Origin: Stegostoma tigrinum | Lineage: Eukaryota | NCBI RefSeq assembly: GCF_030684315.1 | Contig: NC_081389.1 | Span: forward strand, 18,915,203-18,979,202 | Direction: 5' to 3' | DNA length: 64,000 nt | Shown: one piece after another, positions 5,703 through 35,900 of the stretch | Numbering within the stretch: the first letter of the stretch is position 1 | Layout: every line of letters begins with the position of its first letter | Made by a program: the position numbers and the translations under genes | The notes under the pieces: generated by a model | Told to the model about the DNA's origin: nothing | Seen by the model: only the letters and a program-made list of their open reading frames with translations | Database searches by the model: none

Positions 5703-6617
5703 CCCTCATTGTCAGCAGGGGCTTAGAGCATGCATACTGTAAGCAAGTGACATTCAGCCTCAGTCTTCTTTCCAGCAACTTGCTGGCACAGAGAGCAAGT
5801 CCCGGACGGAGACAAGCAAGGGGAAGCAGTCCTACAGAAAATTCACCCTGGAGCAGCTGACAGTTGATGTAGAACAGGATGGTTGTTAGACTGGGACCTG
5901 GCGCAGGGGGTCAGAGGTGTGTAAGCTCCTGCACACAGCTACGGCAATGCAATATTTATTTGACTTTTTTTTAATCTGACTGTAAAGTCAATCCTTTAAA
6001 TATGTCTTATTTCTAACTTATTCTTTAAACATTGTAAAGTAGTGCGACTACTTTCCTTTTTTATTCTTTTGCATCTAAAGATTTCTATCCAAGTACTTGT
6101 TCCACAGATTGTGCCATAAGAGACAACATTGTAAAATGTTTCACCCTACTCCTGTACTTGAGTACAGGTAACAATAAAAGATATTCTATTCTTTAAAAAA
6201 GATCCACAGATAGTCACTTGACACAATAAGGAATGGGCAGAAGCAGTTAAATTGCCATTCTGTCGAGGTAAGAATAATTCTTATCCCTAGCGCTCATTTG
6301 ACAGTAGGGCAAGGTCATCACCTGCCCAAGATAAGTTTTGAAACTCCACAAGTGATTCTAATACCTTGAGAACACAGTATTTCAGGTTCGATGCAGTTAT
6401 ACTACTTCCCATACCAGTAGTCAATCCCTAAGCTGTAGTGGTGCAGAGCTGCAAATATTGTGCTCCAAAGTGTAACAGACTGCTAACTCAAACAAGAAAC
6501 CAGCCAGAAGTATCATTCCTGTGGGGATTGTCAGAAATAAGCATGGCTATAAGACAAGGAACCCACTGTAGTGTGGAAACAGGTCATTCAATCCAACAGC
6601 CAAATGAAGACCCATCC

Positions 6618-6862
6618 TTTACCCTATCCCTGCATTTCCCATAGTTAACCCACCTAGCCTGCACATCCCTGAACACGATGGATAATTTTGTGCAGCCAAT
6701 CCACTGGCACATCTTTGGACTGTACGAGGAAACCGGAGCATGCGGAGGAAATCGCACAGACAGAGGAAGATACAAACTCCACACAGACAGGCGTCCCAAG
6801 GTGGAATTGAACTCTGGTCCCTGGTGCTGACAGGCAGCAGTGCTAGGTTAGCACTGCTGCCA
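6618..6862 (-). mobile_element. V-SINE (HE1-like)
   Basis: Reverse complement of the tRNA-like head and V-domain seen at 9262-9590. Confidence 0.8.
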
Positions 6863-9261: not shown

Positions 9262-9590
9262 GCACGGTGGCTCAGTGGTTAGCACTGCTGCCTCTCAGCA
9301 CGAGGGACCCATGTTCGATTCCACCCTCAGGCAACTGTCTGTGTTTGCACATTCCCCCCGTGTCTATGTGGGTTCCCTCCTGTTGCTCTGGTTTCCTCCC
9401 ACAGTCCAAAGATGTGCAGGGTAGGTGGATTGGCCATGCGAAATTGCCCATAGTGAACAAGGATGTTTAGGTTAGGTGGGTTGGACATGGAAATTAGGGA
9501 AGGGATCTGGGTGGGCTGCTCTTCGGAGGGGCAGTGTGGACGTGTTGGGCCGAACGGCCTGTTTCCACGCTGTGAGGATTCTATGACCTA
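9262..9590 (+). mobile_element. Full-length V-SINE (HE1-like)
   Basis: A box tggctcagtgg, B box gttcgattcc, V-domain, CR1-type tail gggccgaacggcctgtttcc. Confidence 0.85.
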
Positions 9591-13500: not shown

Positions 13501-16500
13501 TGTTAGTTTTGAACTGTGGCATGCATTGCGTAATCAGAATGGTAAACACTTCAATCCACAAACATAAAGCACAAAAAGTAGAGGTCTTGTTTTCAGGTGG
13601 CTTGTTTTATCAGCCTCATTGAAGGGCATGCCTGAAATAGTGACCAGTCTTTCTTTGCAAAGCCAACTCACTATTATGCAATTACAACATTTCTCTAAAT
13701 AAGTTTATTTTCAGCATCTGCAGCTTTATGCAGTATTGCAACCACACAGAAGTTGGGATTGCTCTTCAAAGATCAGAGAAGTTTAAAGGAACTTCAAGAG
13801 ATGGGTTCAAAATAGAGGGCTTTGAGAAGACAGAGAAACAGTTTCTACCAGATGAGCAACAGCACACAAATTTAAGATAATTAAAGTCCCAGATGGACCA
13901 TGTAGAGAATTTTTCTTAATGCAGCAAATCATTGCAAGTGCAATGCGCTCTGAAATGATAATTCAATACCAACTCAAAAAAGGAATTTTATAAATATTGG
14001 AAAAGACCAAATATTGCAGGGATATGAAGAAAACTGATAGCATAGAATTTAGTTGTTTAAATTATAGGTCCTAGCCACTAAATGGCAGCTTGCTTCACTT
14101 GGTAACACTTTCAGTTCAAATGTTCAAGCCACATTCCAAGACTGAGCTAAGTTGCAATGAAATACAGACAGCACTGTCACTGTCTTGTAGGTAAGAGATC
14201 TAGACACTGGTAATCCTGTGGATGAAGATCACATAGCACCACCTCAAGAAAAGGAAGTTTTCATGATGTCATAGGTAATATCAGTCTCAGCAATACCAAC
14301 CCAGTAATTCATTCTATTAATGTTGAGGAATCTTGCCATGAGGGATTCTAGAAGGCAGGCAGTCCATTTAGGATTGAGATGAGGAATTTCTTTACTCAGA
14401 GGATTATGAGTCTGAAATTTTCTATGCTACAGGGCTGTGGAGATTTAGTTGTTGAGAATATTCATGACCACGGGTGAGATATTTCTACACAGTAAAAACA
14501 CCAAGGGATGCAGGGATAGTGATGGAAAGTGACATTGAAAATCGGCTACAGTTTCACTGAATGGTGCAGCAGGCCCAATGTGCTGAATGGCCTCCTCCTA
14601 CTAATATTTTAATATATTCAGTGCAATAAAATGGCTATCACATTACTTGCCAACCAACAACTGTATTTCAAGTAATTGCCTGCAGTCATTTCTGACAGAC
14701 AGGACTTGGTAGGCAAATGCAAATATTTGTTTAAGAGTCCTGTATGTCAACAAGCTCACACAAAACTGTTTAAGAAATATTGCACTATGAACATTATCTC
14801 AGTGACTGCAAGTTAATTTATATTTGACTTTATCTCATTTCTTCAGTCAGATCATGAACGCAACAAACCTTCTTGCAACACCCTCTTCACCAGCATGTTT
14901 AGTTGATCAATAAAAGTTTTCTTTTCACAGTTCATCATTCGAGTAAAGCATTTCTTCAAAGCCTCAGATACCTGACGTGGGTCACCAATGCTATTTTCAA
15001 GCACTTCTGCAGCTTCATTGCCAATCACTGCACGGAATTCTGGGACATCTGAAACAAAGCGAAAGCATCTCAAGACATTAAGAGGGTCCAGTGCAGATCA
15101 GATATTTGTTCAGTTTCCATCCCAAAGCAGAAGGCTAGATGATGCTTTGGGTGCAACACTTCATAAGGATTAAGAAAGTAGACATGGGTAAGAGCAACCA
15201 AAACTCCTGTTTGTAATACCAATAATGTTTGAAATGCATAGTGCAACTCTTAAGTGAGGAGTGGGGCAGATCTAAGTGGAAGAACATGCATTGTTGAACA
15301 TCCATACCTGAACTTTTAGAATGGCCATTTACACAAGGAATTGGAGGGTGCTGTTTTAATGAGGGGTCATGATCCCATACAAGTCACTCCCGTTAGGAAA
15401 AGCGACAAAAAAAGGACAATGCAGGTACACTCTCAAATCCAGCTACCAAAACTGGTGTTGTCTCAACATTATTTACAGTTTTTTCCTCAGCTCAAATAGT
15501 TTGTGATGTAGGAAATGGGGACAAATAGGAAAGCGTCATTAAATCCAAAACATTTGAAGTGAATTAATGACAGCAGCAATCTGGCAATTAAGATGACCTG
15601 CTTTGCAATCACAGCAACTAATTTTCACGTATTCCCTGTTCACTGGCTTAAGGTTTTCCGATTTTAATTAACATGGTCCAAACCTCTTGCTAAGAAACAC
15701 AAGTTCCAAAATCTATCGTGTTTTCAGACTGAGGCGGAGTAAGATTTGAGAGAGTCTACCTACATCAGAAGATTAAAAAAAAAGCTAAGGGCCTTAAACA
15801 ATTTTTTTTTAAATTTGGATTTTGTTGATGTGCTCTTCTATTATCTCTGGTACAAACCAATGATATTGGAACACATTTGTGTTAATGTTATAAACAGATA
15901 TCCCAGCTGTAAGGGCTCAATTTAATAATAGAAAGAATCTATATTTATCCAGGACTTCATAACATCCTCAATTCATCAAAGATATTTACAGCTCAGGGAA
16001 GAACACCCAGCATCTACGGAGGTAAATTCAGCAACCAACTTGCATTAGTAATGTCTGACAAATAGCATAACATTTTGTCAAATAGTGACATGATACTTCA
16101 TGTCCACCAGAATAGGCAAACCATTGGTACAGTAATAATACAGCCTTCTGTATTACTACAATATATTAGCCCAGATGTCCTCAAGACTTTTGTGAACCCT
16201 GAAGTACAACGTTTGTCTTGAAAGTAACAGTACTACCAAATCAGAGTACTGATAACAGCTTGTGTGAAGTCCGCACATTACCCATGAGATTCCATGGCAT
16301 AACAACAAGGTGGTGCGTTTAGAACATGGGAAAAGGGCGATGTTTAATCCAGAGGTCTATGATTAAGATTCCCTAGTGTTCTTACCAATACATGTCAGAA
16401 ATCCTCTTACTTTTCAGAAATCCAATAATTTCCTCCACTGGTTTAAATCCACACAGCCCTTCAAACGGGGTCAGTGCAATGGCCATTTCTGGTTTGTGAT

Positions 16501-19500
16501 TTTTATCCGGATAGCGATCCGGAAACTGAGTGTGCAGTTGTACAGCTAATTCCTGAAAAAGGCATAAACTTTGTTAAACTATGATTAATGCAGCACTGAA
16601 TGATCTAGGAAGAAACAGTATAAAGCTCCTAATAATTCAGTATAGAGTGCTGATTCCTGTAGAAACATATTACGTATATATTTTTCAAATGCTTAAGCTT
16701 TGAGACACTGATGATGTCCCTCCAAATGTAGCAAAATCTGAGGATCAATTTCTGACTAAACAGTGTGGAATCACAAATTTACCCCACCAACTTAGAAGGT
16801 GGCCTGCTTCAATATTTCTAGCAAACTCCTTACTAAATGCATTAGTAACATATTCATAACTGTAAAACAGTAAAAATAAAAGTAGATTTTATTTATATAA
16901 TCTCCCACTGGCTTAACTTCAATTTTCAACTTAGAACAGTCTGTCTTGAAGTGCTCACATAAATGAAAATCAGCTATACTTGGCAGTTTGCAGCAGTTAA
17001 GTTAAGGATAGTTGAGTCTGGCAGAAAGCTAAATACAATTGATCAATCATCCTTAGCTGGAATTTAAAGTACCAGAGATAATAGAAGAGCACATCAACAC
17101 TCTCCATAAATCAACCATGTTTCAAACAAAAAGGTCTAAAAATGTAAATATTTGCTTCATATTTGGAAACACTAAATTCCGTGCTCAATCACTGTGAATG
17201 ACAGTTCAATGCATTCTCGTTCATTCTAAACCACTGATTTTGTCAAGGTAACAAAATAAGCAGCTTGCCATTCCACAGAAATGATTTTCACTAAACTCGT
17301 GTTTAGTGTCCCCCAAAAAAAGCATCAAAATAACCACAGTGATAATGGGAACTGCAGATGCTGGAGAATCCAAGATAATAAAATGTGAAGCTGGATGAAC
17401 ACAGCAGGCCAAGCAGCTCTCTGATGAAGGGTCTAGGCCCGAAACGTCAGCTTTTGTGCTCCTGGGATGCTGCTTGGCCTGTTGTGTTCATCCAGCTTCA
17501 CATTTTATTATCAAAATAACCACAGTTGGATCCAACTGTCAATATTATCCAAGACAAAACTGGGGCCCATGACAAAGTACCAGAATTCATTAGGTTTTGT
17601 TAAGTCTAGTGCCGTACAAACATCCAGTTCTGATAGCTCAATATTTTCTGACCAGAAGAATGTTTCTTCACATTGCTAGATCCCAAAAGAATAATTATTG
17701 TGAAACAAAAGAACTCGTTTCTTATAGTCAACTGTTCCCACCTTTAAAGGTCAGGTGGGGCAGCTGCAAATGTATCAACATTTGGGGATGCAAATAACTG
17801 CTGACAGTATGTTTTGTCATCAACTCAATAACCTTTGAAAATGACAGTTATGCGGAAAACTAAGTACTGCTCTCAAATTCTGAACAAGCCCATACTTATA
17901 AGATTCCGGATGTATAAAAATTAATTCCACGATCAAAGTGCTCAATTTACATAACATGATACTTGCCCAGTTGATGGGAAACAGTTAACCACTTCTTCAC
18001 TTACTTTGGTTGGATGAGCTTGAATAGATAATGAAATGTTGACCGAAAGCACCTTGAACAGAAAGGGAAGCTGCCCTTGGAAAATATCCTTCACCTTTGA
18101 TCCCAAACAGTCAGGATGCTTGGCAATCCATTCCCCAAGAGTTTTCTGGGGAATTCTGTTGTCACAGATAATGGCATCTCCTTTGGGATGCGCTCCCATC
18201 CATAGCTAATAGAAAATCACAACAATTTTTGTTTAAAAATCACTTTTCAGCTAATCATTCCTGTATTTCCCTTAATTATTTCACACATTTTAGTCCTCTC
18301 GTGCTTTAAATGTTATTCATTAACAAGGTAACACCAGGTAATTTGCAATATGTTAGGAATAATTTCATGTTGGCAAGTCATTTATTTTATAAATGCTACC
18401 ATTTGAAACTAACAACATTCTTTTATTTCCAAATGAACTGTAGGAATCCCAGTGTTGGCCAAAGCAAAGAAGTAGGATTTACCACACAACAGATTTGTTT
18501 GCTTCTCAAATTTTAATCAATCAGAATAGAGTGCTGAACTGATACAAAAGTAGGAAGAACAATTCTTTTCTGTACCAGTCAATGAGTGAGGTAGCACATT
18601 GAGCAAACTTCTGGGATTAGTGAAGAAAGTTTTGTACTGGTATTTGCTGGGTTGAAAATTGTTGGCCTGACTACAGGCTAAATTAAATTGTACACCAATA
18701 TTAGATAAATATGGATCAGTAAAGCCAAATCATCTACATATATCTTCTTGAAGAAACTTGTTTAACATCCCATCAAAAAAAGGCAATGCAGCTTGTGTCA
18801 CATGGCATAAAAAGTGCCATAGATTGTGTGTTCAAATCTTTGAAATCGACACAAAAATTGACAGCTGAAATGTCTTTTGCTGGGTCATGTTGATTTGAAC
18901 ATTCCTTAACTACCTACTTAATTATTCTTAAGATGGAGCTCCAAGCACAGTATTAGAGATTGGCATCACGTGAATGACCCACATTATCTAGCGTCAGATC
19001 TGCCCAGTTTCAAGCAGAACTGCTGACAGGTAAAATCTGAGCCTTCCAAAGCACAAACTCTGGGTAACCAGCTCAGAGCAGCAAGGTTGGAGGCCAGAGA
19101 GGTATCAGCATTATAATGCACAGGGAAATAAAGCTCACTCACTCCCAAGAAAACGAGTTACTGACACCACAGGGCTCTTTGAAAGTTAACCCCAATGTGC
19201 CTCTATGTAAAACAACAACCTTGGATTTTGTTCGTACAATGTGAAGGGAATTAAAGTACCTCAGCATAGGGTTTCTCCTGCTCAATGGGTATGGAGGGAT
19301 CATCACTTAAAGTGAGTTTTGCCACCTCACTCTCCAGGCCAACCTTCCCCCAGGCATAATGCTGCACAGCACACTTCAGCGGGAACACTGGAGAAACAAG
19401 AGATTGAAGATAACTATTGGTCTGCAAATAACAAAGGGTAAGTAGAAGGGATGGGATGCGGGGAAAAGAGAGAAACAGGGGATCGGGTGGGGGAGAGAGA

Positions 19501-20026
19501 GAGAAACAGGGGATCGGGTGGGGGAGAGAGAGAGAAACAGGGGATCGGGTGGGGGGAGAGAAACAGGGGATCGGGTGGGGGGAGAGAAACAGGGGATCGG
19601 GTGGGGGGAGAGAAACAGGGGATCGGGTGGGGGAGAGAAACAGGGATTGGGGGAAGAGAAACAGGGATTGGGGGAAGAGAAACAGGGGTGGGGTGCAGTC
19701 GTTTGAGGGGGGCAATTGGGGTTTGGGTTGCGGATGGAGAACGAAGAGAGTGCTGTTTGAACCTCACTGCTTCTGCCTCAGTGGGACATAATACCAACAA
19801 GAGCCACATCCAAAAGCTGCGGCAGTGAGGCCGCTGTCCCTGAAGCCCCGCACTTGGCCCTTACTGTGACCTATAAACCGGCACAACTGTCCGCCTTCAC
19901 CGAACCCCCAAATCACACCCTCCTGCCTACAGTCTCCCTAGACGCCCTATGTGACCATCACTTAGTGCCGCCAGTCCCCTGATGTTAACCGGGTGTGAAA
20001 CTGCGCTCACCATTCACCGCCGCCAT
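10330..20026 (-). CDS. MPI: Mannose-6-phosphate isomerase, 8 coding exons, 1263-nt CDS (420 aa)
   Basis: Motifs [50 protein letters not shown]; all introns GT-AG with consistent phases. Confidence 0.98.
11512..11720 (-). CDS. MPI: MPI exon 7 ([20 protein letters not shown]...MKIE)
   Basis: 209 nt, ctag|AT and GAG|gtatgg. Confidence 0.96.
12574..13147. mobile_element. Composite: minus-strand 3' end of a Poseidon/Penelope-type PLE, an inverted piece of the same element, and a long-ended pLTR of a different family
   Basis: Minus strand encodes [31 protein letters not shown]; plus strand 12884-13010 encodes RIHEHQL...[12 protein letters not shown]; pLTR at 13018-13147. Confidence 0.7.
13311..13484 (-). 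CDS. MPI: MPI exon 6 (ETAGKD...FPGDVGCF...EPHAYLYG)
   Basis: 174 nt, gtag|AG and GAG|gtaaga. Confidence 0.95.
14869..15048 (-). CDS. MPI: MPI exon 5 (VPEFRAVIG...VKRVLQE)
   Basis: 180 nt, ttcag|AT and AAG|gtttgt. Confidence 0.93.
16411..16552 (-). CDS. MPI: MPI exon 4 (ELAVQLH...[19 protein letters not shown]...)
   Basis: 142 nt, ttcag|GAA and AAA|gtaaga. Confidence 0.96.
17341..17509. mobile_element. Fold-back pLTR mini-insertion (long arm left, short arm right), 17-bp TSD
   Basis: ATCAAAATAACCACAGT at 17324-17340 and 17510-17526; intact hammerhead core at 17421-17448. Confidence 0.92.
18005..18205 (-). CDS. MPI: MPI exon 3 (LWMGAHPKG...LSIQAHPTK)
   Basis: 201 nt, ttag|CTA and AAA|gtaagt. 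Confidence 0.96.
19260..19387 (-). CDS. MPI: MPI exon 2 ([14 protein letters not shown]...KPYAE)
   Basis: 128 nt, ccag|TG and GAG|gtactt. Confidence 0.96.
19466..19692. repeat. G-rich minisatellite, about 8 units of GAGAGAAACAGGGGATCGGGTGGGG, in MPI intron 1
   Basis: Directly visible tandem units of ~21-32 nt. Confidence 0.95.
20011..20026 (-). CDS. MPI: MPI exon 1 coding part (ATG GCG GCG GTG AAT G)
   Basis: 16-nt phase-1 exon with G|gtgagc donor that restores the frame into exon 2; GTGATGG start context; CpG-rich. Confidence 0.88.
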
Positions 20027-20135
20027 CACCTACACTCCGGCCGACATGCGCCAAACCGCATCATCACAGGGTTCCGCAGTCACGTGATGGTCGCTGCCGT
20101 GGTGTCTGCCGGGACTTGTAGTCCCGCCCTCAAAG
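20027..20135 (-). promoter_or_regulatory. MPI promoter: E-box/CLEAR-like GTCACGTGAT (20079-20088), ACTACAnnTCCC (ZNF143/THAP11-type) motif at 20111-20125, GC box
   Basis: Motif matches in CpG-rich DNA immediately upstream of the ATG. Confidence 0.65.
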
Positions 20136-20154
20136 TCGAGTTAGTTCTGGAGGA

Positions 20155-20371
20155 TAATGAAATGTGGGCTGGATGAACACAGCAGGCTCAGCAGCATCTC
20201 AGGAGCACAAAAGCTGACGTTTCGGGCCTAGACCCTTCCTCTCTGACGAAGGGTCTAGGCACGAAACGTCAGCTTTTGTGCTCCTGAGATGCTACTTGGC
20301 CTGCTGTGTTCATCCAGCCTCACATTTCATTATCTTGGATTCTCCAGCATCTGCAGTTTCCATTATCACTC
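20155..20371. mobile_element. Fold-back pLTR mini-insertion (short arm left, long arm right), 12-bp TSD, adjacent to the MPI promoter
   Basis: AGTTCTGGAGGA at 20143-20154 and 20372-20383; ~85-bp near-perfect hairpin. Confidence 0.92.
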
Positions 20372-20959
20372 AGTTCTGGAGGACGCAAGATCACAAAAAG
20401 CTGGTAAAAGGAAGTATAGTAAAGTTAGGCAACGTGTGCACAGACAAAGATAAGCCGAGTTAAGTTTGTTGCTGGTAACAGGTCACAGATCTGAAATGTC
20501 AATCGTCTTTATCTCTCCACACAGACACAGCTTAAACTCGCCACTGAGGTTGCTCCCCCAGCAGTGTTATGTTTTTCTCTCAGTTTTCCAGCGTCCACAG
20601 TATTCTGCTTTTTCGATTTCTGTTTTAGATGAAATTGCAGTTTAAACTGATATGCAATGCTGAGTCTTGGTGCTTTCACCAAAGATTCGTTGGAATGAAA
20701 GTGCTTCATAAGACTCACTTTTCCCAACCTAATTTTAGATTGTTAACAGAAATTCTCACATTTTTCATGTAATTTAGCATATTCTCTGGACTTCTAAGGC
20801 ACTGCAACTTCTCTGAAATGTTATATTTGTTACGCAGACAAACGTGATAACCAGTTCATTAAAAGTCATGTTGGTCAAAGCATTCAGAAATCTTGTTTTT
20901 CTGATTAGTAATTTTAATCCACTTGACGAGGTATACAATTTCTTGCACCATGTCATCAA

Positions 20960-23345
20960 ACATATACTGGAACTGTCATAGTGTTAACGGCTTAGGTGGA
21001 GAGGAATTTGTTACGTATGTACAAGAACATTTTCTTATTTATTTTGTTGATGTTCCTACGAGAGAAGGAGCAAAACCTGGCCTTTTCTTGGGAAATAGGC
21101 AGGGCAACTGACTGAGGTGTCAGTGGGGGAGCACTTTGGGACCAGTGACCATAAATGTATAAGCCATGGTATGTTATAGTTATGGGAAAGGATAGTTATC
21201 TAATCTAAAAGTGAAAGTTCTAAGTTGGAGTAAGGCCAATTTTGACGCTACTAGGCAGGAACTTTCAAAACTTGACTGGGAGAGGCTATTTGCAGGTAAA
21301 GTGATGGTTGGAAAGTGGGAGGCCTTCAAAATGAGACAACAAGGGCTCAGAGACAATATGTTCCTGTTAGCATGAAGGGCAAGGCTGGCAGGTGTTGGGA
21401 ATGCTAGATGACTGGAGAAATTGAGGTTCTGGTCAACAAAGAGAGGCAATGTTGGGTATAGCTCCGATGAAGGGTCTAGGCCCAAAACGTCAGCTTTTGT
21501 GCTCCTGAGATGCTGCTTGGCCTGCTGTGTTCATCCAGTTTCTCACTTTGTTATCAATGTTGGGTATAGACAGCTGGGATCACGTAAATCCCTAGAAAAG
21601 TATAAGGACAGTAGGAGTATACCTAAGAGGGAAATAAAGTGGCAAAAAAGGCACGTGATAGTTTTGGCAAATAAAGTTATGGAGAATCCAAGGAGATTTT
21701 ACAAATAATTAGCACAAAAAAGTAAGTAGGGAGAGATTAGGACCCCTTAAAACTCAATAAAACTATCTATGTATGGAACCACAGGAGATCAGTGAGATAC
21801 TAAAACTAATATTTTGTTTTAATATTTACTGAGAAACACATGAAATCTAAAGAACTTGGGAAATAAATTGATGAGAAACCACACAACAACAGGTATCATC
21901 CAACAAGTTTATTTGAATACACATCATGAAATAAATAGTGATATCTTGAAAAGGTGCTGGATATCTTCAACTACATAAAGGCAAATAAATACTGATTATG
22001 TGTATCCCTCAACTTTGTGAGAAGTTAGAGAAGAGACTGCTGGGCCCCTTGCAGTGATGTTTGTAACATCGATAGCCATAGGTGAAGTGCTGGAAGACTG
22101 AAAATTATCTAATGTGGTGCCATTATTTAACAAAGGTAGTCAGGAAAACCAGGAACTATAGACTGGTATGTCTGACATCAGTGGTGGATAAGTTGTTGGA
22201 GGGGACTCTGAGAGACAGGGCTTACATGCATTTGGAAAGACAAGGACTAATTAGGGAAAATCAACATGGCTTTGTGCATGGGAAGTCATGTTCCACTAAC
22301 TTGATTGAGTCTTTTGAACAAGTAACAAAGAAGTTTTATGAAGGCAGAGTGGTGGATGTTGTCTATATGGGTTTCTGCAAAGTGTTCAGCAAGGTTCCGC
22401 GTGGCAGTCTAGTTAGCAAAGTTAGATCAGATGGAACCAGCCAATTGGATACATAATTGGCTTGAAGGTAGGAGACAGAGGGTGGTGATGGACTGGAGGC
22501 CTGTGACCAGCGGTGTACCACAGCTATCAGTGCTGAATCCACTGCTTTTCATTATTTAAAGAAATGAATTTGGATGTGAATATGAGGTATGGATAGTATG
22601 TTTGCAGATGACACCAAAATTGGTAGTGTAGTTGATGTGAAGAAGGGAACAGAGTATTAAAACAGGTAAGTCTTGCTAGGACCTAGTCAGAACACAGCTG
22701 GAATACTGTGAACAGTTTTTCACCCCTTAGGAAAGATATACTGGCTTTGTAGGCAGTGCAGAAATGATTCACTTTGTTCATTCTGGTTATGGAGAGATTT
22801 TCGTATGAGAAGTGGATAAGTAGATTAGGCTCAGAGTAAGAATTGCAGATGCTGGAGTCAGAGATAATACAGTGTGGAGCTGGAGGAACACAGCAGGCCA
22901 GGCTGTGTCGGAGGAGCAGGAAAGTTGATGTTTCAGGTCGGGACCCTTCTTCTTGTTCTCATTGGAGTTCATAAGAAATAAAGGTGACCATATTGAAACA
23001 TGTGAGATTCTTTGGGTGCTTGGCAGGGCAGATGAGAAGACTCTCAGACCAGAAGGCATCATCTCAGAGTAAGGAGTTGCCCATTAAAGACCGAGATAAG
23101 GATTTTTTTTCCCTCTCAGGGGATGTTGAATCTATGGAATTCTTTACCTCAGAGCCGTTGAGGCTGAGTTGTCAAGATTTTTCAAAGCTACAAAAGATTT
23201 CTAATGTTTAAGGGAATGAAATGTTATGGAGAAAAGACAAGATAGTGAAGTTGAGGATTATCAGATCAGTCAGTTTCATTGAATGGTGGAGAAGACTTGA
23301 TGGACTGAATGGCCTATTGTGCTTTTATGCATTATGGTCTTAGCA
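20960..23345 (+). mobile_element. Decayed CR1 (HER1-like) LINE ORF2 fragments with nested pLTR insertions (21462-21554, ~21872-21927, ~22833-22952)
   Basis: NYRLVCLTSVVDKLLE, QHGFVHGKSCSTNL, VDVVYMGFCKVFSKVP, FADDTK-like motifs with stops and frameshifts; CR1 tail. Confidence 0.88.
21462..21554 (+). mobile_element. 93-bp pLTR micro-insertion (hammerhead region to short end), 15-bp TSD
   Basis: CAATGTTGGGTATAG at 21447-21461 and 21555-21569. Confidence 0.9.
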
Positions 23346-23669
23346 TGTTGAAAGGTGAAGCAGAAATGACAGGCCAAATGGTCTGTTACTGCTCATCTGT
23401 AGTGCTGTAAAGTTCTGTAATTTTGTGTATCTGCTTGGGTTGTGTGCTCAAACTCAGGATTGTGGCTAGTCTCCACAATCGTCTGACCACCTGAGAATTT
23501 AAAGATAAAGTCTTTAAACAGTGATAGTATAACAGTTTTTACAGCATGGAGAGAGGCCTTTCAGCCCATCTTTTCTGTACCAGCCAATAAACATCTATTC
23601 TAATACTATTTCCAGCAGTGGCCTTGTATGTTATGGCATTTAAGTGTTGATCTGAAGAGTTCTTAAATG

Positions 23670-25682
23670 TCAGTGATAATGGGAACTGCAGATGCTGGAG
23701 TATCCAAGATAACAAAGTGTGAAGCTGGATGAACACAGCAGGCCAAGCAGCATCTCAGGAGCACAAAAGCTGACGTTTCGGGCCTAGATCCTTCATCAGA
23801 GAGGGAGATGGGGAGAGGATTCTGGAATAAATAGGGAGAGAGGGGGAGGTGGACCGAAGATGGAGAGAAGATAGGTGGAGAGGAGAGTATAGGTGGGGAG
23901 GTAGGGAGGGGATAGGTCAGTCCAGGGAAGACGGACAGGTCAAAGAGGCGGGATGAGGTAGTAGGTAGGAAATGGAGGTGCGGCTTGAGGTGGGAGGAAG
24001 GGATGGGTGAGAGGAAGAACAGGTTAGGGAAGCGGAGACAGGCTGGGCTGGTTTTGGGATGCAGTGGGGGGGAGGGGAAGAGCTGGGCTGGTTTTGGGAT
24101 GCAGTGGGGGAAGGGGAGATTTTGAAGCATGTGAAGTCCACATTGATACCATTGGGCTGCAGGGTTCCCAAGCGGAATATGAGTTGCTGTTCCTGCAACC
24201 TTCGGGTGGCATCATTGTGGCACTGCAGGAGGCCCAGGATGGACATGTCATCTAAAGAATGGGAGGGGGAGTTAAAATGGTTCGCGACTGGGAGGTGCAG
24301 TTGTTTATTGCGAACTGAGCGGAGGTGTTCTGCAAAGCGGTCCCCAAGCCTCCACTTGTTTCCCCAATGTAGTGGAAGCCACACCGGGTACAATGGATAC
24401 AGTATATCACATTGGCAGATGTGCAGAATATCTGCTTAATATGGAAAGTCATCTTGGGGCCTGGGATGGGGGTGAGGGAGGAGGTGTGGGGGCAAGTGTA
24501 GCATTTCCTGCGGTTGCAAGGGAAGGTGCCTGGTGTGGTGGGGTTGGAGGGGAGTGTGGAGCGGACAAGGGAGTCACAGAGAGAGTGGTCTCTCCGGAAG
24601 GCAGACAAGGGTGGGGATGGAAAAATGGCTTGGGTGGTGGGGTCAGATTGTAGATGGCGGAAGTGTCGGAGGATGATGCGTTGTATCCGAAGGTTGGTGG
24701 GGTGGTATGTAAGAACGAGGGGGATCCTCTTGGGGCAGTTGTGGCGGGGGCGGGGTGTGAGGGATGTGTTGCGGGAAATGCGGGAGACGCGGTCAAGGGC
24801 GTTCTCGACCGCTTCGGGGGAAAGTTGCGTTCCTTGAAGAATCTGGACATCTGGGATGTGCGGGAGTGGAATGCCTTATCCTGGGAGCAGATGCGGCGGA
24901 GGTGGAGGAATTAGGAATAGGGGGTGGAATTTTTGCAGGAGGGTGGGTGGGAGGAGGTGTATTCTAGGTAGCTGTGGGAGTCAGTGGGCTTGAAATGGAC
25001 ATCAGTTTCTAGCTGGTTACCTGAGATAGAGACAGAGAGGTCCAGGAAGGTGAGGGATGTGTGGGAGATGGCCCAGGTGAACTTGAGGTTGGGGTGGAAG
25101 GTGTTGGTGAAGTGGATGAACTGTTTGAGCTCCTCTTGCTCCCGAGAGGCGGCACCGATACAGTCATCAATGTATCGGAGGAAGAGGTGGGGTTTGGGAC
25201 TTGTGTAGGTGCAGAAGAGGGACTGTTCCACATAACCTGCAAAGAGGCAGGCATAGCTTGGGCCCATGCGGGTACCCATGGCCACCCCCTTTGTCTGTAG
25301 GAAGTGGGAGGAATCGAAAGAGAAGTTGTTGAGGGTGAGGACGAGTTCGGCTAGGTGGATGAGGGTGTCGGGGGATTGGTCGGGCCTGCGGGACAGGAAG
25401 AAGCAAAGGGCCTTGAGGCCATCTGTATGAGGAATACAGGTGCCTAGGGACTGGACGTCCATGGTGAAAATGAGGTGTTGGGGGCCAGGGCATTGGAAGT
25501 TCTGGAGGAGGTGGTGGGCGTGGGTGGTGTCAAGTACGTAGGTATGGAGTTCCTGGACCAAAGGGGAGAAAATGGAGTCCAGATATGTGGAGATGAGTTC
25601 GGTGGGGCAGGAACAGGCTGAGACAATGGGTCGACCAAGGCAGGCAGGTTTGTGGATTTTGAGAAGGAGATAGAAACGGGCC
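23670..25682 (-). mobile_element. Longest Neptune-type PLE copy: RT core, Cys linker, GIY-YIG, long 3' end; inactivated; inserted in an old CR1 tail
   Basis: FTMDVQSL, GVAMGTRMGPSYACLF, FLRYIDDC; premature TAA at 24911-24913 and frameshifts; hammerhead core 23772-23799; flanks join into one CR1 3' tail. Confidence 0.95.
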
Positions 25683-26269
25683 TGAGATTTCCTATCTCTG
25701 CCACACTTCTGGACAGTGAGTTCCTGTATTTCACGACCCTCTCGGTGAAAGAAGTTGTAAGGCCCTTGATAATTGCTGAGCCACCATCTTCAATGGCTGA
25801 AGTCCTTTTAGATGCTGCATCATTTACATCTACAGCATTTACTATAGATTCATCTGCTGTATTTCGCTTGAGGCACGGGTTGAGTGTATAAGGTGCAGCA
25901 ACAGATTGAGTCTGATCACACCGCTTACGGTAACTTGGAACCTCAGAGACGACTCAGCATTATTATTTCCATTGACAGCTTTTTCTTCAAAGTTGAGTGC
26001 TGCAGGAAAATTCATATGGGCCTGAAAAAAGCGAACCAGCATCTGCAGTTCTTTGCTTTGGAGAATTACAGGTTTGTTGTTGTCCCAGTTTAAGTCGAGC
26101 CGCAGATGGCAAGTTCTTCAGCGTGTTCGGTTTCCTTACAATTGCACATTTCCAGCAACCTGCAAGACTTTGCACGGAATAGAAAGGGTGGGAGTGGGCT
26201 AGGCAAAAAGAAAAATTCTTTAACCCATTGCCCCAAAGAAATCTGGATCGCCCGAACTGCAACTTGGTC

Positions 26270-26930
26270 CCAAAACCCTGCCCGGTGTGACGCACTGGGC
26301 AGGAGGTTCCGGGTGACGTCGGCGGGGAGGGCGGGGGACCTCCTTTGTGACATCACAATAGAAGACACCGGTTGGCCGGCAACGGCGAGTGAGTTATTCG
26401 CGCGTGCGCGGTTCCACTCGGCAGAAGGGTGCGAGCGTGAGAGGCTGGCGGGTGGAGGAGGAGGCCGCGGGTGGAGGGTAGGTGGAGGGTGAAGCAGTTC
26501 GTTAACTTTTCTGACGTCTGTGTCTGTGAGGGGAGGAGGTGATACGTTAAGAGAATCGGAAACGATGTCGGAATTCGACGCTAATCCGTTCGCGGATCCG
26601 GTGGATATCAATCCCTTTCAGGTAAGTTTGTAATTTGGTGCTGGTGCGTAAGAGTAAACAATTTTTTTTCCGGGGCGGTTTTCGCTGGGCAGCGGAGCGT
26701 CGAGGCGCAATCCTGAGTCGACCGAACCTGCTGGGCGGCTGATTGACGTGGTGTCCGACCAATCAAGGAGCTCGTGCCTGCTTTCCACGCCCAGTCAGCG
26801 GGGGCGGGGGCGGGGGAAAGTCGGAGGGCTCCAGCGCGTTCGGTTGCTGCCGCACCTTTTTGTTGCCTTCTCTGCCTCTTCACCGCAAGTCGCTGGAAAA
26901 CGCAGCAGCCGTTGCCCACACCCATCACAT
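26270..26930 (+). promoter_or_regulatory. SCAMP2 CpG island promoter (CRE-like TGACGTC, GC box, ETS TTCCGG, TGTGACATCACA near-palindrome)
   Basis: CpG-rich region around exon 1 with motif matches at 26300-26390. Confidence 0.7.
26565..26621 (+). CDS. SCAMP2: SCAMP2 exon 1 ([19 protein letters not shown])
   Basis: 57 nt, CAG|gtaagt. Confidence 0.96.
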
Positions 26931-29900
26931 AAAAGCTACTGCTTATTATTCCAAATACTCCCCTGACAGGATGTCCTGAAGCATTATAGTCATTATTCAC
27001 GTCGGTTTTGTTTCTGTTTTTGTTTTTCACCACCACCTCCAGTGTCGTTTTATCACTTTTTGTAATCTGGAGACGAGATCCGTTCGCGACACGAAATGTG
27101 ATCAGAGATAATGGGAACTGCAGATGCTGGAGAATTCCAAGATAATAAAATGTGAGGCTGGATGAACACAGCAGGCCAAGCAGCATCTCAGGAGCACAAA
27201 AGCTCCTGAGATGCTGCTTGGCCTGCTGTGTTCATCCAGCCTCACATTTTATTATCACGAAATGTGATCAGTACGGGTTTAGCATAACCCTCTCCTTTCT
27301 CGTCTCGAGTTATTTATCTGAAGACGTGAGCAGAAGTAAGCCGTTCAGTTATGTGCACCGCCATTCGACGAGATCAGGGCTGAGCTGACATTCCTCAATT
27401 TCATGTCCTCGCCTTTTCCCCTCATTGCCCTCGATCCCCTTTACAAACATGGGTAGGAAGTAGTGGAGAAACCCAGTACGTCTGGGAGTATTTGTGGAGA
27501 GAGAAACACGGTTAATGTTTCGAGTGCAGTGACCTTTCTTCAGAGTTTGACTCCCTTACTGATTAAAAGTCTTCTTGAATATGCTTAATGACAGCCTCCT
27601 GTGCTGAAGAATTCCAAATCACTTGTCTCTGAAAGTATACATTCCTCCTCAGTCTTAAATGGGTGCGCCCCCCCCCCCCCCCCGACTCTATATAATACTA
27701 CCTGAGATATTGTGAGACTGCTGCAGTGTTACCTGGTAAAATATTTTACAAGTTTTTCAGTGATTTTTGCCAGACTGGGGTTTGGCTGGGAGCAGGTGCA
27801 GCTCACTCCTTAGCAAAGATTGCACAACAAGCTGTGGCTGACACCCATCTCAGTTATTTCTATACTTTCATTTCAGAAACTATCCTTGAAAGAATACCAA
27901 AAGCATTATAACTGCATTCTTAACAATTTCTTTTTTTTTGTACTGGCTGTAGCACTGTATCATTTTTGAAGTGTGAAGAGCAGTGTAGTGTAAATGTGGT
28001 CTAACAAAGGTTCAATGCAGGTTTAAAATAACCTACTTTTAAGATCCAGAGCTAATCTACACAGGCACACCTCAAGCATCAGTTTTATATTACTTCAGAC
28101 CCACTTGTTTATATTTCCAGTTGTGTGCGTTTTGCAGAGCACTTGGTCAGAAGTTACACAACACCAGGTTGTTGTCCAACAGTTTTATTTGAAATTGCAA
28201 GCTTTTGGAGCAGTGCTCCTTTGTCAGTTAACCACCACAGTGCAACTCTGGCACCTCTGTTACGAGTACTTGGGTAAAGACATCCAGCTAGAACCCTATC
28301 TGCAAGTAATCCAGTCTATATATGCCATCATTTGACTTGCCTCTTGTGATGTTGGCATCACTGGCAAAGAAGTATTTGTTGCTTATCCCCAAGTAAGTCA
28401 TGCTGAATTGCCTTGAACCGCATTAGTCCTTTTTTTTGTGGGTAAACCTAAAATGCATTTCGGGAGGCTCTTCCAGATTTAAGGTACAGTGACAATAAGG
28501 GAGGAAGTACATAAGCTCCAAGTCTGAATTTGCTGTGGCTTGTTGGTGTTTCCATGTACCTACTGTCATGTTTTTAATTTGTAGGAGGAGTGTTTGGAAA
28601 GTGCTGAAGGAAGAGCCTTCTCAAATTGCTGTAGTAGATGCAGCCCACTGCTGCCACAGTGTATTGATGTTGTAGGGAGTAAATGTTGATGGTAATCCAT
28701 GGGTTGTGATCACATAGGCAGCTTTGTCTTGGAGCCTTCTGTATTTTCTCTCCTGTAAATGTTTAGATTTTTCTTGAGTGCATCTGTTTGTCTCGGACTT
28801 AATTGGTAGCTTTTCCATATTCTAACCACTCGTTTTTATAGGAGCTTGTCCCAAATTCCTGATTGCATTTTTAGTCAAATATTGAAACCTCTAATTTTAG
28901 ACTCTTACCCAACATGAAAGCACTTCTGTATGCCCCATTAAACTTTTAAAGAATTCTATTCTGTCACCTGCATGAATAATAATTAGTTGTCTCGCGAGAC
29001 CAAAAAGCCGCAATATTTAGTGTAATGTTTTAGAATAACTGAGGAATTTGAAGTATTGTCCTTGTCAGTTTGTCTATTTTTTACACCTTCCCTAGGACTA
29101 CCACATCGTTTGTATAAAATTTGAGAGCAGAACAGTTCACAGTACCAAATGTGGTCAAACCAAGTTTTGCATAACCTGCTTTTCAAGATCATCCCCTGAG
29201 AAATGAACTGGATGTGTAATTTGTGGCTGTTAATGACATGGTCAGCCCGTCTTTTTCTTAAACCGTGACACTTTCTGATCTCTTTGATCCTCTGAATACG
29301 TTTTTATTTTTAATATGTTAACATCTATACTTACATTGTGGGGCAGTGTAATAAGAACATTTTAAAACAGGAGAGACTTCCAGCCTCTTGAGTTAGTTGT
29401 AATTTCCTCACATTTTTGAGCTTTTGGTTTCTAAGATGCAGCAGAATATTTGCAAATTATTTCTTGCTGGAGGATACTATCCTTTGACAGGAATTGAACA
29501 TAAAAATAAGGATGGAATGCTTCGGTTAAATAAGGTATTGGTGAGACCATGTTTTGAATGCTATGTGCAGTTTTTGTCACTTTTTTTAAAAAGACATAAA
29601 AAGCTGACAGGGATATTCAGAGCCAGTTCAATTTAATACCTGGAATCGGTAGGTTGTCTGACGATGCTTTACACAGGCTAAGCTTGTTTCTGTGAAAGTT
29701 TAAAGGAATGGGGAATGACTTGATTGAAGATTCTGAATGGTCTTGACAAGGTTGATGTGAAGGGCTGTTTCATTTTTGTATGATAATCCAGAACTAGGCA
29801 CTGTTTTGAAATTAGACATCACCTTTTAACGACAGTGGTGAGGAGAATTTTTGTTTTGAGGGTTATGCGACTTTGGTGCACTCTGCCTCAGAAGGTGATA

Positions 29901-32900
29901 GAAGCAGGGTTAATAAATAGTCTTGAGATGGGTGAATAGATTCTTATTAGACAAGAAGATGTGGGGTGGATGTGTTAGATGACAGGGTGGAATTTGAAAC
30001 AATGAAGGATCAGCCATGACCTTGTTGAATGATGGAGCAAGCTCAAGGGGCTGAATGGTCTACTTTTGCTTCATTAATAAAAAGTGGAAGAACTAGTTTG
30101 TTATCTTGGCTTTTGCGCAGCTGAACAATTGACCTGTTGCAATTAGAGCATAGGTCACTTAAGTTTTGGTGGAAGCTTAAAACTGATGTCTAGAGGTAGA
30201 TTGCCTGTCAAAGATTACTGTTGCAAGCTTCAGATTCTGGAATAGTTTGGCCAAAGATAGAATATTCTGTTCAGAAATAATTATGGAAAAATAAGTTTAG
30301 ATTTGAAGGAGGTGAGCTATTAAATGAAAAACAAAAGGAAATTGCTTTGTAGCCACACTACATCTACAGAAAGAGAAATAGTTAATGTTTTATGTTTGTT
30401 GCCTTCCATCAGCTAAAATATCTGGCTTTGTGCTGTGGAATTAAACAAACACTTGTCACTTCAATTTGGGCAGTAGGCTGTCAATGTCAAATTTATCATA
30501 AAACTATAGCATTCCAGTATAATACTATTTCTGGGAGGAAAAGCTTGCTGCCTTGTGTTGAATATTGTAAATAGGAACAAACAGTTTAGAGCAAACAGCC
30601 TAAAGTAGACTATTGGAAATAGAGGCTGGCTGAACATGATGGGATGTTTTATTATGTAAACATATATAATTGACTAATTGAGTAAAACTATTTTTATAAA
30701 TGAAAGCTACACATGAACTGATGATAAACCAGTTGTTTTTGAGCAATGCAGAGCCACAAAATGGTTTCATCTTGATGGGTACTTGTTATAATTACTGATC
30801 ATGTGTTTTGTTTTATTAATACACTTTCGGTTAGGACACAACTTTCAAGAAATTGTCAGAATTGCATACAGAGGAGCACGTGAAAGATAAAGCTGTGGAG
30901 GAACTTAAGGAGGGAATTCAAGTCCACGCCATAGGCAGCTGAAGACTGATAAGATCTTCAGAGGGCTTGGCAGGGTGGATGTTGACAGGAATATTTGTTT
31001 TGTTCATTCATGGAATGTGGGTGTCAGTGGCTGAGCACTTATTGCCTACTTCTGGTTGCTGTTGATTAGGTGGTGGTAAATTGCTGCCTTGAAATTCTGT
31101 TTTACACTTGGTGTAGGCAGACTAACAATAATATTAGAGTTCCAGAATTTTGACCTGGTGACACAATGAAGTCACAATGATGAGTGGCTTGGAGGGATGA
31201 TGTTTCCACACTTCAGGTGCCCTTGTCTTTGTCGGTGGGTGTGGCTGTGAGCTATTGCTTCCCCCTTTTATATACTCTGCGTGGACCTCAGGTCTGAGCC
31301 TGGCACCGACTTCTGCAAGCAAAAGCTATTGTTTCAGCACGTTGGCTGGCATCTGCGGAACCTTCAGGCAGCTGTGCAGCTTAAAGGGAATATTTGATCA
31401 TCAGTTTGGAATGTTTCTGTGGTATTACTTGTCGCTGGTACATGCCACTGATGCTCAGTAGCAGCAGAAGGAATGACCACTTGTGACTGTGTCATTCCAG
31501 TGGGTTGATGTTTCCTGGATGGTGTCAGGCTTCGAGTGTTGCTTGAGCTGCACTCATCCGAGCAAGTGGGATTACTCCAGCACAGTCCTGACCAGTATTC
31601 TGTAGATGGCAGGTAGGCGTTGACAGTGAAGAGAAGGGTTACTTGCTGGTTTCTTAACCTCTGACTTTTCCTATAGTCAGAGTATTTGGGGTTAGCCCAG
31701 TTCAGATAACTCCCAGGATGGAATAGTAGGGAACCCCCATGATGAAGCTATTGAATGTCACAATGCTGTTTCACCTTGTGGTAGAAAGCAAAAGTAGTGG
31801 ACATAGTTTGAGTCAGAGACCATTTTAGACTGCCATTTGGGACTGACAGTTGTCAGTCTTGGAATACCCTTCTCCAGAACTTGATAAAGACAAAGTAATT
31901 GTTCACTTGTAAGACAGATTTAGAATAACTTTCCTTTGAGTGAAAAGCCTATTGTTTTAAACTCTAAGTGCTGTCAGCACTGTCCCCATTAAATTGCCTC
32001 TGATTAAACTGGTCACCATAATTCTGTGATAACAAAGTGTGGAGCTGGATGAACACAGCAGGCCAAGCAGCGTCTTAGGAGCACAAAAGCTAATGTTTCA
32101 GGCCTAGACCCTTCATCAGAAAAAGGGGATAGGGAGAGAGGGGGAAGCAGATTGAAGATGGATAGAGGAGAAGATAAGTGGAGACGAGACAGGCACGTTT
32201 AAGGGGTGGGGATGGGGCCTGTAGAGGTGAGTGTAGATGGGGAAGTAGGGAGGGGATAGTTCAGTCTGGGGAGGACGAACAGGTCAAGGGGGCAGAATGA
32301 GGTTAGTAGGTAGGAAATGGAGGTGCGGCCTGAGGTGGGAGGAGGGGATAGGTGAGAGGAAGAACAGGTTAGAAGAGTGGGATCGAGCTGGGCTGGTTTT
32401 GGGATGCAGTGGGGGAAGGGGAGATTTTGAAGCTTGAGAAGTCCACATTGATACCATTGGGCTGCAGGGTTCCCAAGCGGAATATGAGTTGCTGTTCCTG
32501 CAACCTTTGGGTGGCATCATTGTGGCACTGCAGGAGGCCCGGGATGGACATGTTGTCTAAGGAATGTGAGGGGCAGTTGAAATGGTTGCGACTGGGAGGT
32601 GCAGTTTTTTTACTGCGAACCGAGCGGAGGTGTTCTGCAAAGCGGTCCCCAAGCCTCCACGTGGCTCCCCCTCGTCCTCACGTACCACCCCTCCAACCTC
32701 CTGGATCCAACACATCATCCTCCGACACATCCACTATCTACAATCTGACCCCACTACTAACGACATTTTTCCATCCCCACCCTTGTCTGCTTTCCAGAGG
32801 GGCCACTCTCCCCATGACTCCCTTGTCCGCTCCACACTCCTCTCCAACCCCACCACACCAGGAAGTGCTACACTTGTCCCCATTCCTGGTCCCTCACCCC

Positions 32901-35900
32901 CCTCCCCTGCCCCAAGAGAATTTTTCCACATCAAGCAGATATTCACCTGCACATCTTCCAATGTGGTATACTGCATCTGCTGTACCCATTGTGGCTACCT
33001 CTACATCGGGGAAATCAAGCGGAGGCTTGGGGGCTGCTTTGCAGAATACCTACGCTTGGTTCACAATAAACAACTGCACCTCCCAGTCGCGAATCATTTC
33101 AACTCCCCCTCCCATTCCTTAGATGACACATCCATCCTGGGCCTCCTGCAGTGCCACAACGATGCCACCCGAAGGTTGCAGGAACAGCAGCTCGTATTCC
33201 ACTTTAGAACCCTGCAGCCCAATGGTATCAATGTGGATTTCACAAGCTTCAAAATCTCCCCTCCCCCCCCCACTGCATCCCAAAACCAGCCCAGCTCAAT
33301 CCCTGCCTCTAACCTGTTCTTCCTCTCTCCTATTCCCTCCTCTCTCACCTCAAGCCGCACCCCCATTTCCTACCTACTAACCTCATCCTGCCCCCTTGAC
33401 CTCTCCATCCTCCCCAGACTGACCTAACCCCTCTGTCTCTACCTCGCCACCTACAATCACCTCTCCAGGCCCCATCCCCGCCCCTTAAACCTATCTGTCT
33501 CCTCTCCACCTGTCTTCTCCTCTATCCATCTTTGATATGTCTCCCCATTTATTTCAGAACCCTCTCCCCAACGCCCTCTTCTGATGAAGGGTCTAGGCCC
33601 GAAACGTCAGCTTTTGTGCTCCTAAGATGCTGCTTGGCCTGCTGTGTTCATCCAGCTCCACACTTTATCTCGGATTCTCCAGCATCTGCAGTTCCCATTA
33701 TGTCTGACCATAATTCTGTGTTCAAATTTTTGTGATGAATAGAGGGAAACATTAACAGTGCAAGAACATAACAGTTCTGTGACAAAAATCACATGGACTG
33801 TCTACCCGAACAGTCTTGGCAAACACCTGTTTCAATTCTGCATGGCAAAACTTAATATTTTATACTGAGATAAGATAGAGGGCAATTGCCACTATACCTG
33901 AAATTATACCTCCACACCTGGGTTCAATTAGCACAAAAATCAAAGATAATATTCTCAGTGCAATATTGAGGTGCTTTGAGGTTGTTGTTATGAAAACGGC
34001 TATTTAAATGAGAAAACCTCCCTATAATTTTTAAAGGCAAAGTCAGAAAATATTAAGCAACCCCCCCAGTGGAGTGCTGTTGCAAGAAAAAAATTACCAA
34101 CTCTTGTGTAAGGAAATGGAAACTTAAGATTAAAATCATATTTTCTGGAGTGATGATGCACCTCCATCCCTTGTGACACCCACCAGTCTCGAAAGGTCTT
34201 ATTTGTACTACTGTTGAAAACCGCATGCTCCCTATCCAGGGACACCCAAGCATGGACATCTCTGCAAAAGAGGGACAAACTGTAGGATCCGTGACCCCTT
34301 CTGCAGTTTGCTGCCTGGACCCATTAAGGCCAACTTGTTCAGGTGCAGGAATAGACCCATGAGAACGCCCTCTGACTTGTCTGCACCTCCTCACATCAGA
34401 TGTCTGGGGCTGAAGTACAGCTAATATTTGAGAACTCCCTTCAAAAATGGGTTGCTGGAGTAAATAGCAATGTGGTGAGATGGCCAACTCCATTTCATGG
34501 GACAGCAAACTTGAACTAAGTGACTTACCCGTGATCCTAATTTTTTTTAATAAAAGACAAACTACTGATGATGAACACTTTGCTGATTTTAACTGCTTTG
34601 AGGTCGAATTTGTAGAACAGAAAAGTTGTGAAGGGTTCTCGGGCTGGAGGAAGCTATAAAGATGGAATTTGGAGGAGTGGCAGGTAGAATCAAGGAAATG
34701 ATGAGAATTGAAATAGTCTTTCCAAACCAAGAGCCAGTGTAAATCAGCAAGCGATGAGGGAAAAGAATTTGATCCAAGTGCAACCAGCAGAAATCTGGCT
34801 GAGTACAAGCTAGGAAGGGTGGAATGTGAGAGGCCAACCCAGAGATGGAGAGGCAACAATTTGACATTACTGGCTTGGACCAGTATGACATGATAATGTT
34901 CAGTTTACTTAAGCAACTGTTTTAAAAAATAAATGGATAGACTAGCCAAGATTGAAAATGGTGGGGAAACAGAACAAATTCATTTATGTGGAAGCGATGA
35001 ATTGTTAATTCAACAGATTCTCTACGAAAATGATAATCTGATACAATTTGTTTAATTTTACCAACTTATTTGAATCTACACTGCACTCATGTGTTCCTTT
35101 TTGGTTTAGTTGCATGTTTCCTAAGCTTCCATATTGAGTTCCTGAACAAATCCCCTATCAGCAGTCAAAAGTCTGTGTTTTTGTATTTCAAATTGTGGCA
35201 AATGAGACCAGGTATATTTTTCAGATTCTTTCTGATTCAGCTTTGGTAAATTTTGCTTAATTTCCAAATAAATTTGTGACAGTTTCACTGCAAGTTATTT
35301 GGTGAATACAACTTAGACCAGTTTAATTCCATGTCTTAATCATTTCAACTAGTGCTATGGCTGATGCCTTCACAATGTTGCAATCTGCTTAGATATTCTT
35401 TTTTGTTCAGAACATCCCAGGAGGCCCTTGTATATCTCAAGTACATTTTACTCAGTTCCTCACTGACCGTGATGAACATCTTGTTCTCCATTCTTATTTA
35501 TAGAAGAGCAATCATCAAATTGTGACTCCACTAAATGAGTAAAAATTTCATCACTTTAATGTGACACAGGGTAACTTTACTGTCTTCTAGCAAACAAGGC
35601 AAAATTTGCATTTATATAGCCATTTTCATAACACAAGAATCTCAAAGCACCTCTACTGCACGGAGAATATAGTCTTTGGTTTTTTTTTGTGCTGACTGAA
35701 CCCAGGTGTGGAGATATGATTTCAGGTATAGTGGCAATTGACCTCTGCTGTCTTTTTTTTCCAATGTAAAATATTAAGTTTTGCTATGCAGAACTGATAT
35801 AAACAAATGTTTGCCAAGACTGTTTGGGTAAGCAGTTTGAGAGTTTTATCACAGAACTGTTACGTTCTTGCTCTGTGACTATTTCCCTATTTTTCACAAG

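Follow-up and report, generated by a model that had tools for sequence, protein, structure and literature searches.

Inverted Penelope-like insertions in 64 kb of Stegostoma tigrinum DNA join one tailed and one untailed end inside a single target-site duplication

How can one insertion of a retroelement consist of two inverted copies that end at two different positions? The question is raised by a 64-kb stretch of Stegostoma tigrinum DNA (the window, to which every copy count refers), in which a Penelope-like element (PLE), here called family A, has left four inverted insertions. A 'tail' of 30–40 bp on one of two inverted pseudo-long terminal repeats (pLTRs) inside one target-site duplication (TSD) has been described for PLEs (PMC3846280, PMC8557442). 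The feature studied here is this known one-sided tail, and the central inference about its origin was already shown in vitro in 2024. The new part is a modest refinement drawn from seven pairs, namely obligate priming at two sites of one RNA.

Structure of the four inverted insertions

Family A arms were gathered by blastn, with the longest arm as the query against the window. Nineteen arms were found, eight of them in four inverted pairs (insertions 1–4) and 11 single. Each pair consists of two outward-pointing arms of 55–1043 nt, enclosed by one exact TSD (17, 12, 16 and 14 bp). TSDs were defined as maximal exact flanking repeats; in 20,000 random 40×40-nt window pairs, at least 12 exact matches occurred in 0.18%. 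All four insertions combine one long (tailed) and one short end.

Insertion 1 lies between TSD copies at 17324–17340 and 17510–17526 (17 bp). Its long-ended arm (17341–17417, minus strand, 77 nt) has a shorter body than the partner arm, so the pair is non-nested. The short-ended arm (17416–17512, plus strand, 97 nt) begins at the predicted hammerhead core (17421–17448), and its final 3 nt overlap the TSD; the final 4 nt of the left TSD copy match the long terminus. In insertion 2, flanked by 12-bp copies at 20143–20154 and 20372–20383, the short-ended arm (20153–20238, minus, 86 nt) has a private variant in common with the long-ended arm (20238–20371, plus, 134 nt), which begins at the hammerhead core.

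The 16-bp TSD copies of insertion 3 are at 27090–27105 and 27256–27271. Alone among the 19 arms, its long-ended arm (27103–27204, minus, 102 nt) has a 5' end that coincides exactly with the predicted hammerhead cleavage site, allowing for a 3-nt junction ambiguity. The short-ended arm (27202–27256, plus, 55 nt) meets it at an inner junction with 3-nt microhomology. Insertion 4 is the largest, with 14-bp copies at 32015–32028 and 33707–33720. The short-ended arm (32028–32659, minus, ~630 nt) comprises the end of the endonuclease (EN) coding region, the 3' untranslated region (UTR) and the pLTR. The long-ended arm (32664–33706, plus, ~1040 nt; hammerhead core at 33581–33608) is 88.7% identical to it.

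The target of insertion 4 was an older repeat. A paralogue of this repeat (35609–35943, minus, 80% over 342 nt, across the junction) carries the target once and represents the empty site. When the outer flank of each arm was compared with the inner junction, no repeat longer than 5 nt was found in any of the four insertions. The preliminary description of this DNA had reported these four insertions, one outer TSD for each and one long plus one short end; the exact flanking repeats confirm the coordinates and TSD lengths, and all four pairs are mixed. Separate TSDs around each arm, which it had named as contrary evidence, were looked for and were absent from all four.

Termini, inner ends and single arms

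The short and the long terminus both carry a TTATC motif. The spacing was 33 nt in six of the seven long copies measured and 34 nt in one, and the long end extends 0–5 nt past TTATC. The two ends are therefore well defined, as had been proposed, and the proposed distance of 38 nt is only the upper limit of a range of 33–38 nt.

The 11 single family A arms (five long, six short) end within about +3 nt of either site. The claim that single arms end at only two positions thus holds to within ~3 nt, with two of the 11 (22840 and 39367) degraded and ambiguous in end type. A TSD of at least 12 bp was present at three of the 11, and 6-nt matches at the expected place at two more. Hidden tiny second arms were looked for beside all 11, and none was found; no tandem copy was seen among the 19 arms. 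The single-arm copy at 41484 carries, at its 5' end, a second copy of a 34-nt internal segment (41484–41517 and 41617–41650), as a template jump in first-strand synthesis might leave.

The inner 5' truncation points had been described as free. They are not: three of the eight paired arms, and nine of all 19 family A arms, begin where the hammerhead core has its 5' edge (P=0.011 and 8e-7, respectively, under a rough log-uniform null; for four old copies among the 19, the 5' end is the alignment end only). This suggests that an RNA 5' end, or a stop of the reverse transcriptase (RT), is located there, giving solo-pLTR-like copies. Clustering of short-copy 5' ends at this edge was seen in three families (17416, 20238, 21461, 49737 and other arms; 28227; 27540 and 43505).

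A second family with the same asymmetry

A second terminal-repeat family (family B) is present as four strong arms and one weak match (40644, E 0.27), and forms three inverted pairs, each with one short and one tailed arm. Pair B1 (5435–5714) has a short arm at 5443–~5545 (minus) and a tailed arm at ~5555–5701 (plus), within a degraded 12-bp TSD (11/12). Pair B3 (28137–28273) has a short arm at 28145–28227 (minus) and a long arm that is the tail alone, at ~28228–28263 (plus; null 0.00075); its TSD is 10 bp (9/10), and the arms do not overlap. Pair B2 (21860–21942) is tentative, with a short arm at 21870–21923 (minus), the last nine tail nucleotides at 21920–21928 (plus) and an exact 9-bp TSD core. 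The tail is complete in one copy (5662–5701), and a degenerate hammerhead-like core at 5580 was matched by a relaxed pattern only. A tblastn search for coding sequence linked to family B gave none among the matches listed for two of the eight queries; only terminal repeats were seen in the window.

With both families, all seven pairs were long plus short, which has P=0.008 under an independent 50:50 choice (six of six: P=0.016). The arms overlap by 44–630 nt in five of the seven (insertions 1–4 and B1); the layout of B2 and B3 is that of twin priming.

Nesting of the arms differed among the pairs. In insertions 2, 3 and 4, the tailed arm also has the longer body. In the other three of the seven pairs (insertion 1, B2 and B3), each arm holds sequence that its partner lacks. 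Fold-back, the name first given to these insertions, is hence not supported as their mechanism. Copying by fold-back needs one arm to be contained in the other, so both nicks must have primed in the non-nested pairs.

Evidence for one event and a probable single source

Shared variants link the two arms of a pair. When the four long and four short arms were permuted over the 42 columns that all eight arms have in common (24 long×short pairings), the true pairing had the fewest differences. The arms of insertion 4 have 12 shared sites that are absent from five other copies (the next best pair has five), plus a shared 44-nt UTR insertion, and they were sisters in the tree with a support of 0.95. 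A single template for both arms of insertion 4 is likely, judged from these sequence comparisons.

The TSD overlaps the element terminus by 1–4 nt at 10 junctions with a clear TSD. The overlaps total 18 nt (P=0.002, two-sided geometric null). Two of the 10 scored junctions depend on an A presumed to follow the long terminus, and the score leaves out the single arm at 49631 (old subfamily, with TSD). Some inner junctions show short microhomology or palindromes.

Proposed mechanism and its alternatives

The reading that we favour, with a probability of roughly 55%, is that one ribonucleoprotein (RNP) presents two fixed sites of one RNA, that both nicks prime, and that displacement of the leading cDNA by the trailing RT makes the arms overlap. 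Each structure would be a single retrotransposition event of a Neptune-type PLE. The TSD lengths point to a GIY-YIG EN that nicks both strands 12–17 bp apart and leaves 3' overhangs. Each 3' end would then prime reverse transcription, as it does in vitro for another PLE, and synthesis would start at one of two fixed sites in the pLTR RNA, 33–38 nt apart and both with UUAUC. Pairing of 1–4 nt between primer and RNA may help, as the observed junction overlap suggests. Most likely, one RNA would serve both primers, each at its own site and probably within a protein dimer; this amounts to programmed twin priming. Where the downstream RT halts at the upstream primer, the long arm would consist of the tail only (B2, B3); where it presumably displaces the leading cDNA, overlapping arms would result (insertions 1–4, B1). 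The truncated cDNA ends, often stopped at the hammerhead, would be joined, sometimes via microhomology, and then filled in.

The use of two different sites by the two primers leaves one arm with a tail and the other without. Moreover, the tailed arm in B2 and B3 stops at or before the start site of the inverted arm, which favours one RNP with two sites of one RNA. A stricter version states that each staggered nick must use a different site of a single RNA, ~35 nt apart, with 1–4 nt of pairing. We advance it tentatively and rate it somewhat below an even chance. If true, obligate two-site priming would give one mechanism for the one-sided tail, inverted pLTRs, tail-only arms and overlapping arms across PLE families.

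Several points weigh against this reading. Overlaps of 44–630 nt need strand displacement, a step that the model can only assume. Of 581 columns, 65 differ between the arms of insertion 4, including 11 at which each arm matches some other copy; two RNAs from one master locus would also give shared variants. The junction overlap fits primer–RNA pairing, and it could equally reflect a sequence preference of the endonuclease. A structural basis for the two start sites is unsupported by the folding models: the predicted pLTR RNA fold, with the tail on the 3' side of a long stem, is no stabler than shuffles (z=+0.89), and a two-sided change was found at only two of the 26 pairs of the consensus fold.

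The sample of pairs is a further weakness. It comprises seven pairs from one window, and the family B pairs were examined once the rule was already known. The family B TSDs are weak (null fractions of 0.026 for B1, 0.017 for B2 and 0.081 for B3), the long arm of B2 is a 9-mer that occurs three times in the window, and the pLTR layout is the sole basis for regarding family B as a PLE. For family A, the 4/4 mixed pairs have P=0.06 under independent choice with the single-arm frequencies (five long, six short). Hence, the four family A pairs alone do not establish a long-plus-short rule.

The strongest competitor, which we consider unlikely, assumes two templates. A dimer might carry two RNAs, or one tandem transcript might supply both its upstream and its downstream pLTR/3' copy; long or short would then be set by an asymmetry between first and second priming and not by a shared RNA segment. 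Overlaps of up to ~630 nt would then need no displacement, the 11 split sites between the insertion 4 arms would be expected, and partial tandems are common among PLEs (PMC2377424). However, such a scheme does not account for the long arms of B3 and B2, which reach no further than the short site. An independent choice of sites has the P of 0.008 given above for seven of seven, and the 19 arms include no tandem copy.

An older reading is that a single event of target-primed reverse transcription (TPRT) was followed by self-priming (hairpin) copying, and that the EN trimmed the second end so that the tail stayed on one side; self-priming appears in PMC3846280 and EN-mediated resolution in PMC8557442. 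The nesting of insertions 2, 3 and 4, the variants common to both arms and the microhomology or palindromes at some inner junctions are what this would produce. A copy cannot hold sequence that is absent from its template, however, and each arm of insertion 1, B2 and B3 has private sequence. Both termini are also found among the single arms, and in vitro reverse transcription starts at either site (PMC11167929). We regard self-priming as improbable, clearly more so than two templates.

That no rule exists and that the end combinations are random, with 4/4 or 7/7 being small-sample luck, finds some room in the P value for the four original pairs and in the wording 'optionally' and 'often' used in the literature (PMC3846280, PMC8557442). 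With family B included, though, seven of seven pairs are mixed, and the same asymmetry has been reported in a rotifer and other PLEs (PMC3846280, PMC8557442); chance is thus a very improbable explanation. Two independent adjoining insertions, or later recombination between copies, are conceivable in so dense a family (19 arms in 64 kb) but barely credible given one exact outer TSD, no inner TSD, an empty site and subfamily variants that match within pairs.

Coding content of family A

From its predicted coding content and RNA motifs, family A is a Penelope-like retroelement with an RT, a C-terminal GIY-YIG domain, a Neptune-type linker and a predicted hammerhead core. The window holds no full-length copy. 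The longest copy (23671–25683, minus, a single arm) is 5'-truncated and has a frameshifted RT, thumb, CX4CXXC linker, GIY-YIG, 3' UTR and a long-ended pLTR. It is collinear with residues 374–891 of P0031, an 893-aa protein with RT and GIY-YIG domains. Its closest named matches were in two carpet sharks, Rhincodon typus (86%, query coverage 71%) and Chiloscyllium punctatum (77%, query coverage 100%). A single-arm copy with a short end (41484–42951, plus) has an open thumb/linker/GIY-YIG frame.

The window copies are truncated and frameshifted, and the Pfam matches (RVT_1, E=0.001; GIY-YIG, E=0.00046) were both below the cut-offs. The search of the RT fragment against PDB sequences gave no matches. 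Family A has the CCHH motif, including two cysteines located between GIY and YIG, as defined in PMC8557442, and the DKG motif is present in the close relatives P0002 and P0003. The RT–EN linker is CNRRKCYTC, of the CX2-5CXXC type that is common to Neptune and Nematis (PMC8557442). It excludes Poseidon and fits Neptune or Nematis alike, and does not single out Neptune.

A putative minimal hammerhead was identified in six copies by a pattern search (CUGAUGA, stem II, GAAA, a palindromic stem III and GUC), following the description in PMC4209133. Rfam gave no match in the whole window at the gathering threshold and no hammerhead at E up to 10 on 33500–33760, where only three chance-level matches were listed. 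One match at this level (E 4.4) was between the antisense pLTR at 33593–33718 (minus) and RMST_8, a conserved region of a long non-coding RNA; it may be an old PLE remnant or noise.

Comparison with known systems

Family A shows the optional 3' tail of 30–40 bp, the inverted arrangements and the variable TSD of PLEs with an endonuclease (EN+). Inverted pLTRs with a one-sided tail are described for Pen2a_Av of Adineta (PMC3846280), a general scheme is given in the legend of Fig. 2 of PMC8557442, and a 34–37 bp repeat is known from D. virilis (PMC2377424). The insertions here are alike in the head-to-head, 5'-truncated inverted copy, the single TSD and the hammerhead motif in the pLTR, with a tail of 33–38 nt. 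Unlike those elements, the pairs here are minimal and consist of two truncated arms, with neither a full open reading frame nor a direct pLTR. The passages of PMC3846280 and PMC8557442 that describe these structures give no counts and mention neither non-nested pairs nor junction overlap.

The closest experimental system is PAc (Poseidon_Ac of the green anole). In vitro, both DNA strands were cut and extended, a dimer was predicted, and the tail lay between two RT start sites located downstream of the hammerhead (PMC11167929, 2024). The idea that two staggered nicks prime at two defined RNA sites, which the preliminary description had offered as its own inference, is upheld by these experiments and by the single outer TSD, and it is for the same reason no longer new. 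In the PAc RNA, ACAACA occurs at the stated site and ~36 nt upstream (a hand count in the RNA given in the methods of PMC11167929), much as TTATC occurs twice here. PAc belongs to the Poseidon clade, whereas family A has the CX4CXXC linker of Neptune/Nematis. One PAc result is a further point against the favoured reading: no difference in start site was seen between the strands, which were assayed separately, and the start site is called non-homologous to the cut DNA (PMC11167929). The main text of that paper does not say at which of the two sites each end of a single event starts.

Twin priming by long interspersed element 1 (L1) resembles the proposed mechanism in that both target nicks act as primers on RNA, which yields an inversion within one TSD. 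The internal priming site of L1 is variable, and its overlaps are usually short. Here, the internal site has a fixed position ~35 nt away from the first, poly(A) is absent, arms overlap by 44–630 nt in five of seven pairs, and the enzyme class is another. An inverted 5' segment that abuts a non-inverted 3' segment, overlapping it little, was seen in B3 and tentatively in B2, and not in insertions 1–4 or B1. B2 and B3 work in the manner of twin priming, but they are not products of L1. The marked contrast with L1 that had been drawn from overlapping arms is thus not supported: the arms of B2 and B3 do not overlap, and duplications at the inversion junction occur among L1 products as well (PMC12350158, figure legend).

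Our literature search, which left most subscription papers outside its reach, returned no study in which end combinations are counted or obligate pairing of the two sites on one RNA is proposed; nor did it return the variants shared by both arms, the 1–4 nt overlap of TSD and element ends or the non-nested pairs. The accessible portions of PMC9977147, 10.64898/2026.07.22.740005 and 10.1101/2024.12.14.628481 contain nothing on the end-pairing question. The origin of tandem and inverted PLE structures is called open in PMC8557442, and the later steps are given as unvalidated in PMC11167929. What the present pairs add is a combined prediction: within a single event, the two ends start from different sites on one shared RNA, and some long arms stop where the short site lies. 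It would be of relevance to the annotation of PLEs and to two-ended TPRT enzymes as insertion tools.

Other repeats in the window

A third pLTR-like family (family C), related to family A, was observed at 20481–20601, 27464–27545, 43505–43625, 49090–49222 and 50100–50800. The copy at 49090–49222 is a degraded inverted pair that has no usable TSD; the one at 50100–50225 is a single arm with a small local inversion within the hammerhead stem. Both structures were excluded from the pair count.

Among the best 25 of 30 and of 41 inverted-repeat pairs, those at 12826/13005, 15816/17106 and 60034/60187 were considered as further inverted insertions and rejected, as they do not belong to families A–C. 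The first (12826–13005) resembles a miniature inverted-repeat transposable element, with 41-nt inverted repeats 98 nt apart, and lies directly upstream of an old pLTR copy. The second is a 31-nt exact inverted repeat (15816–15853 and 17069–17106), 1.2 kb apart.

Dispersed repeats resembling short interspersed elements were seen at 4393–4635, 6628–6845, 9273–9541 and 62433–62800, the last of which is interrupted by an old pLTR copy. Insertion 3 adjoins a GC-rich, CpG-island-like stretch (26250–26900) that may be a host promoter. A purine-rich minisatellite (19460–19690), beside a GC-rich stretch, lies upstream of insertion 2.

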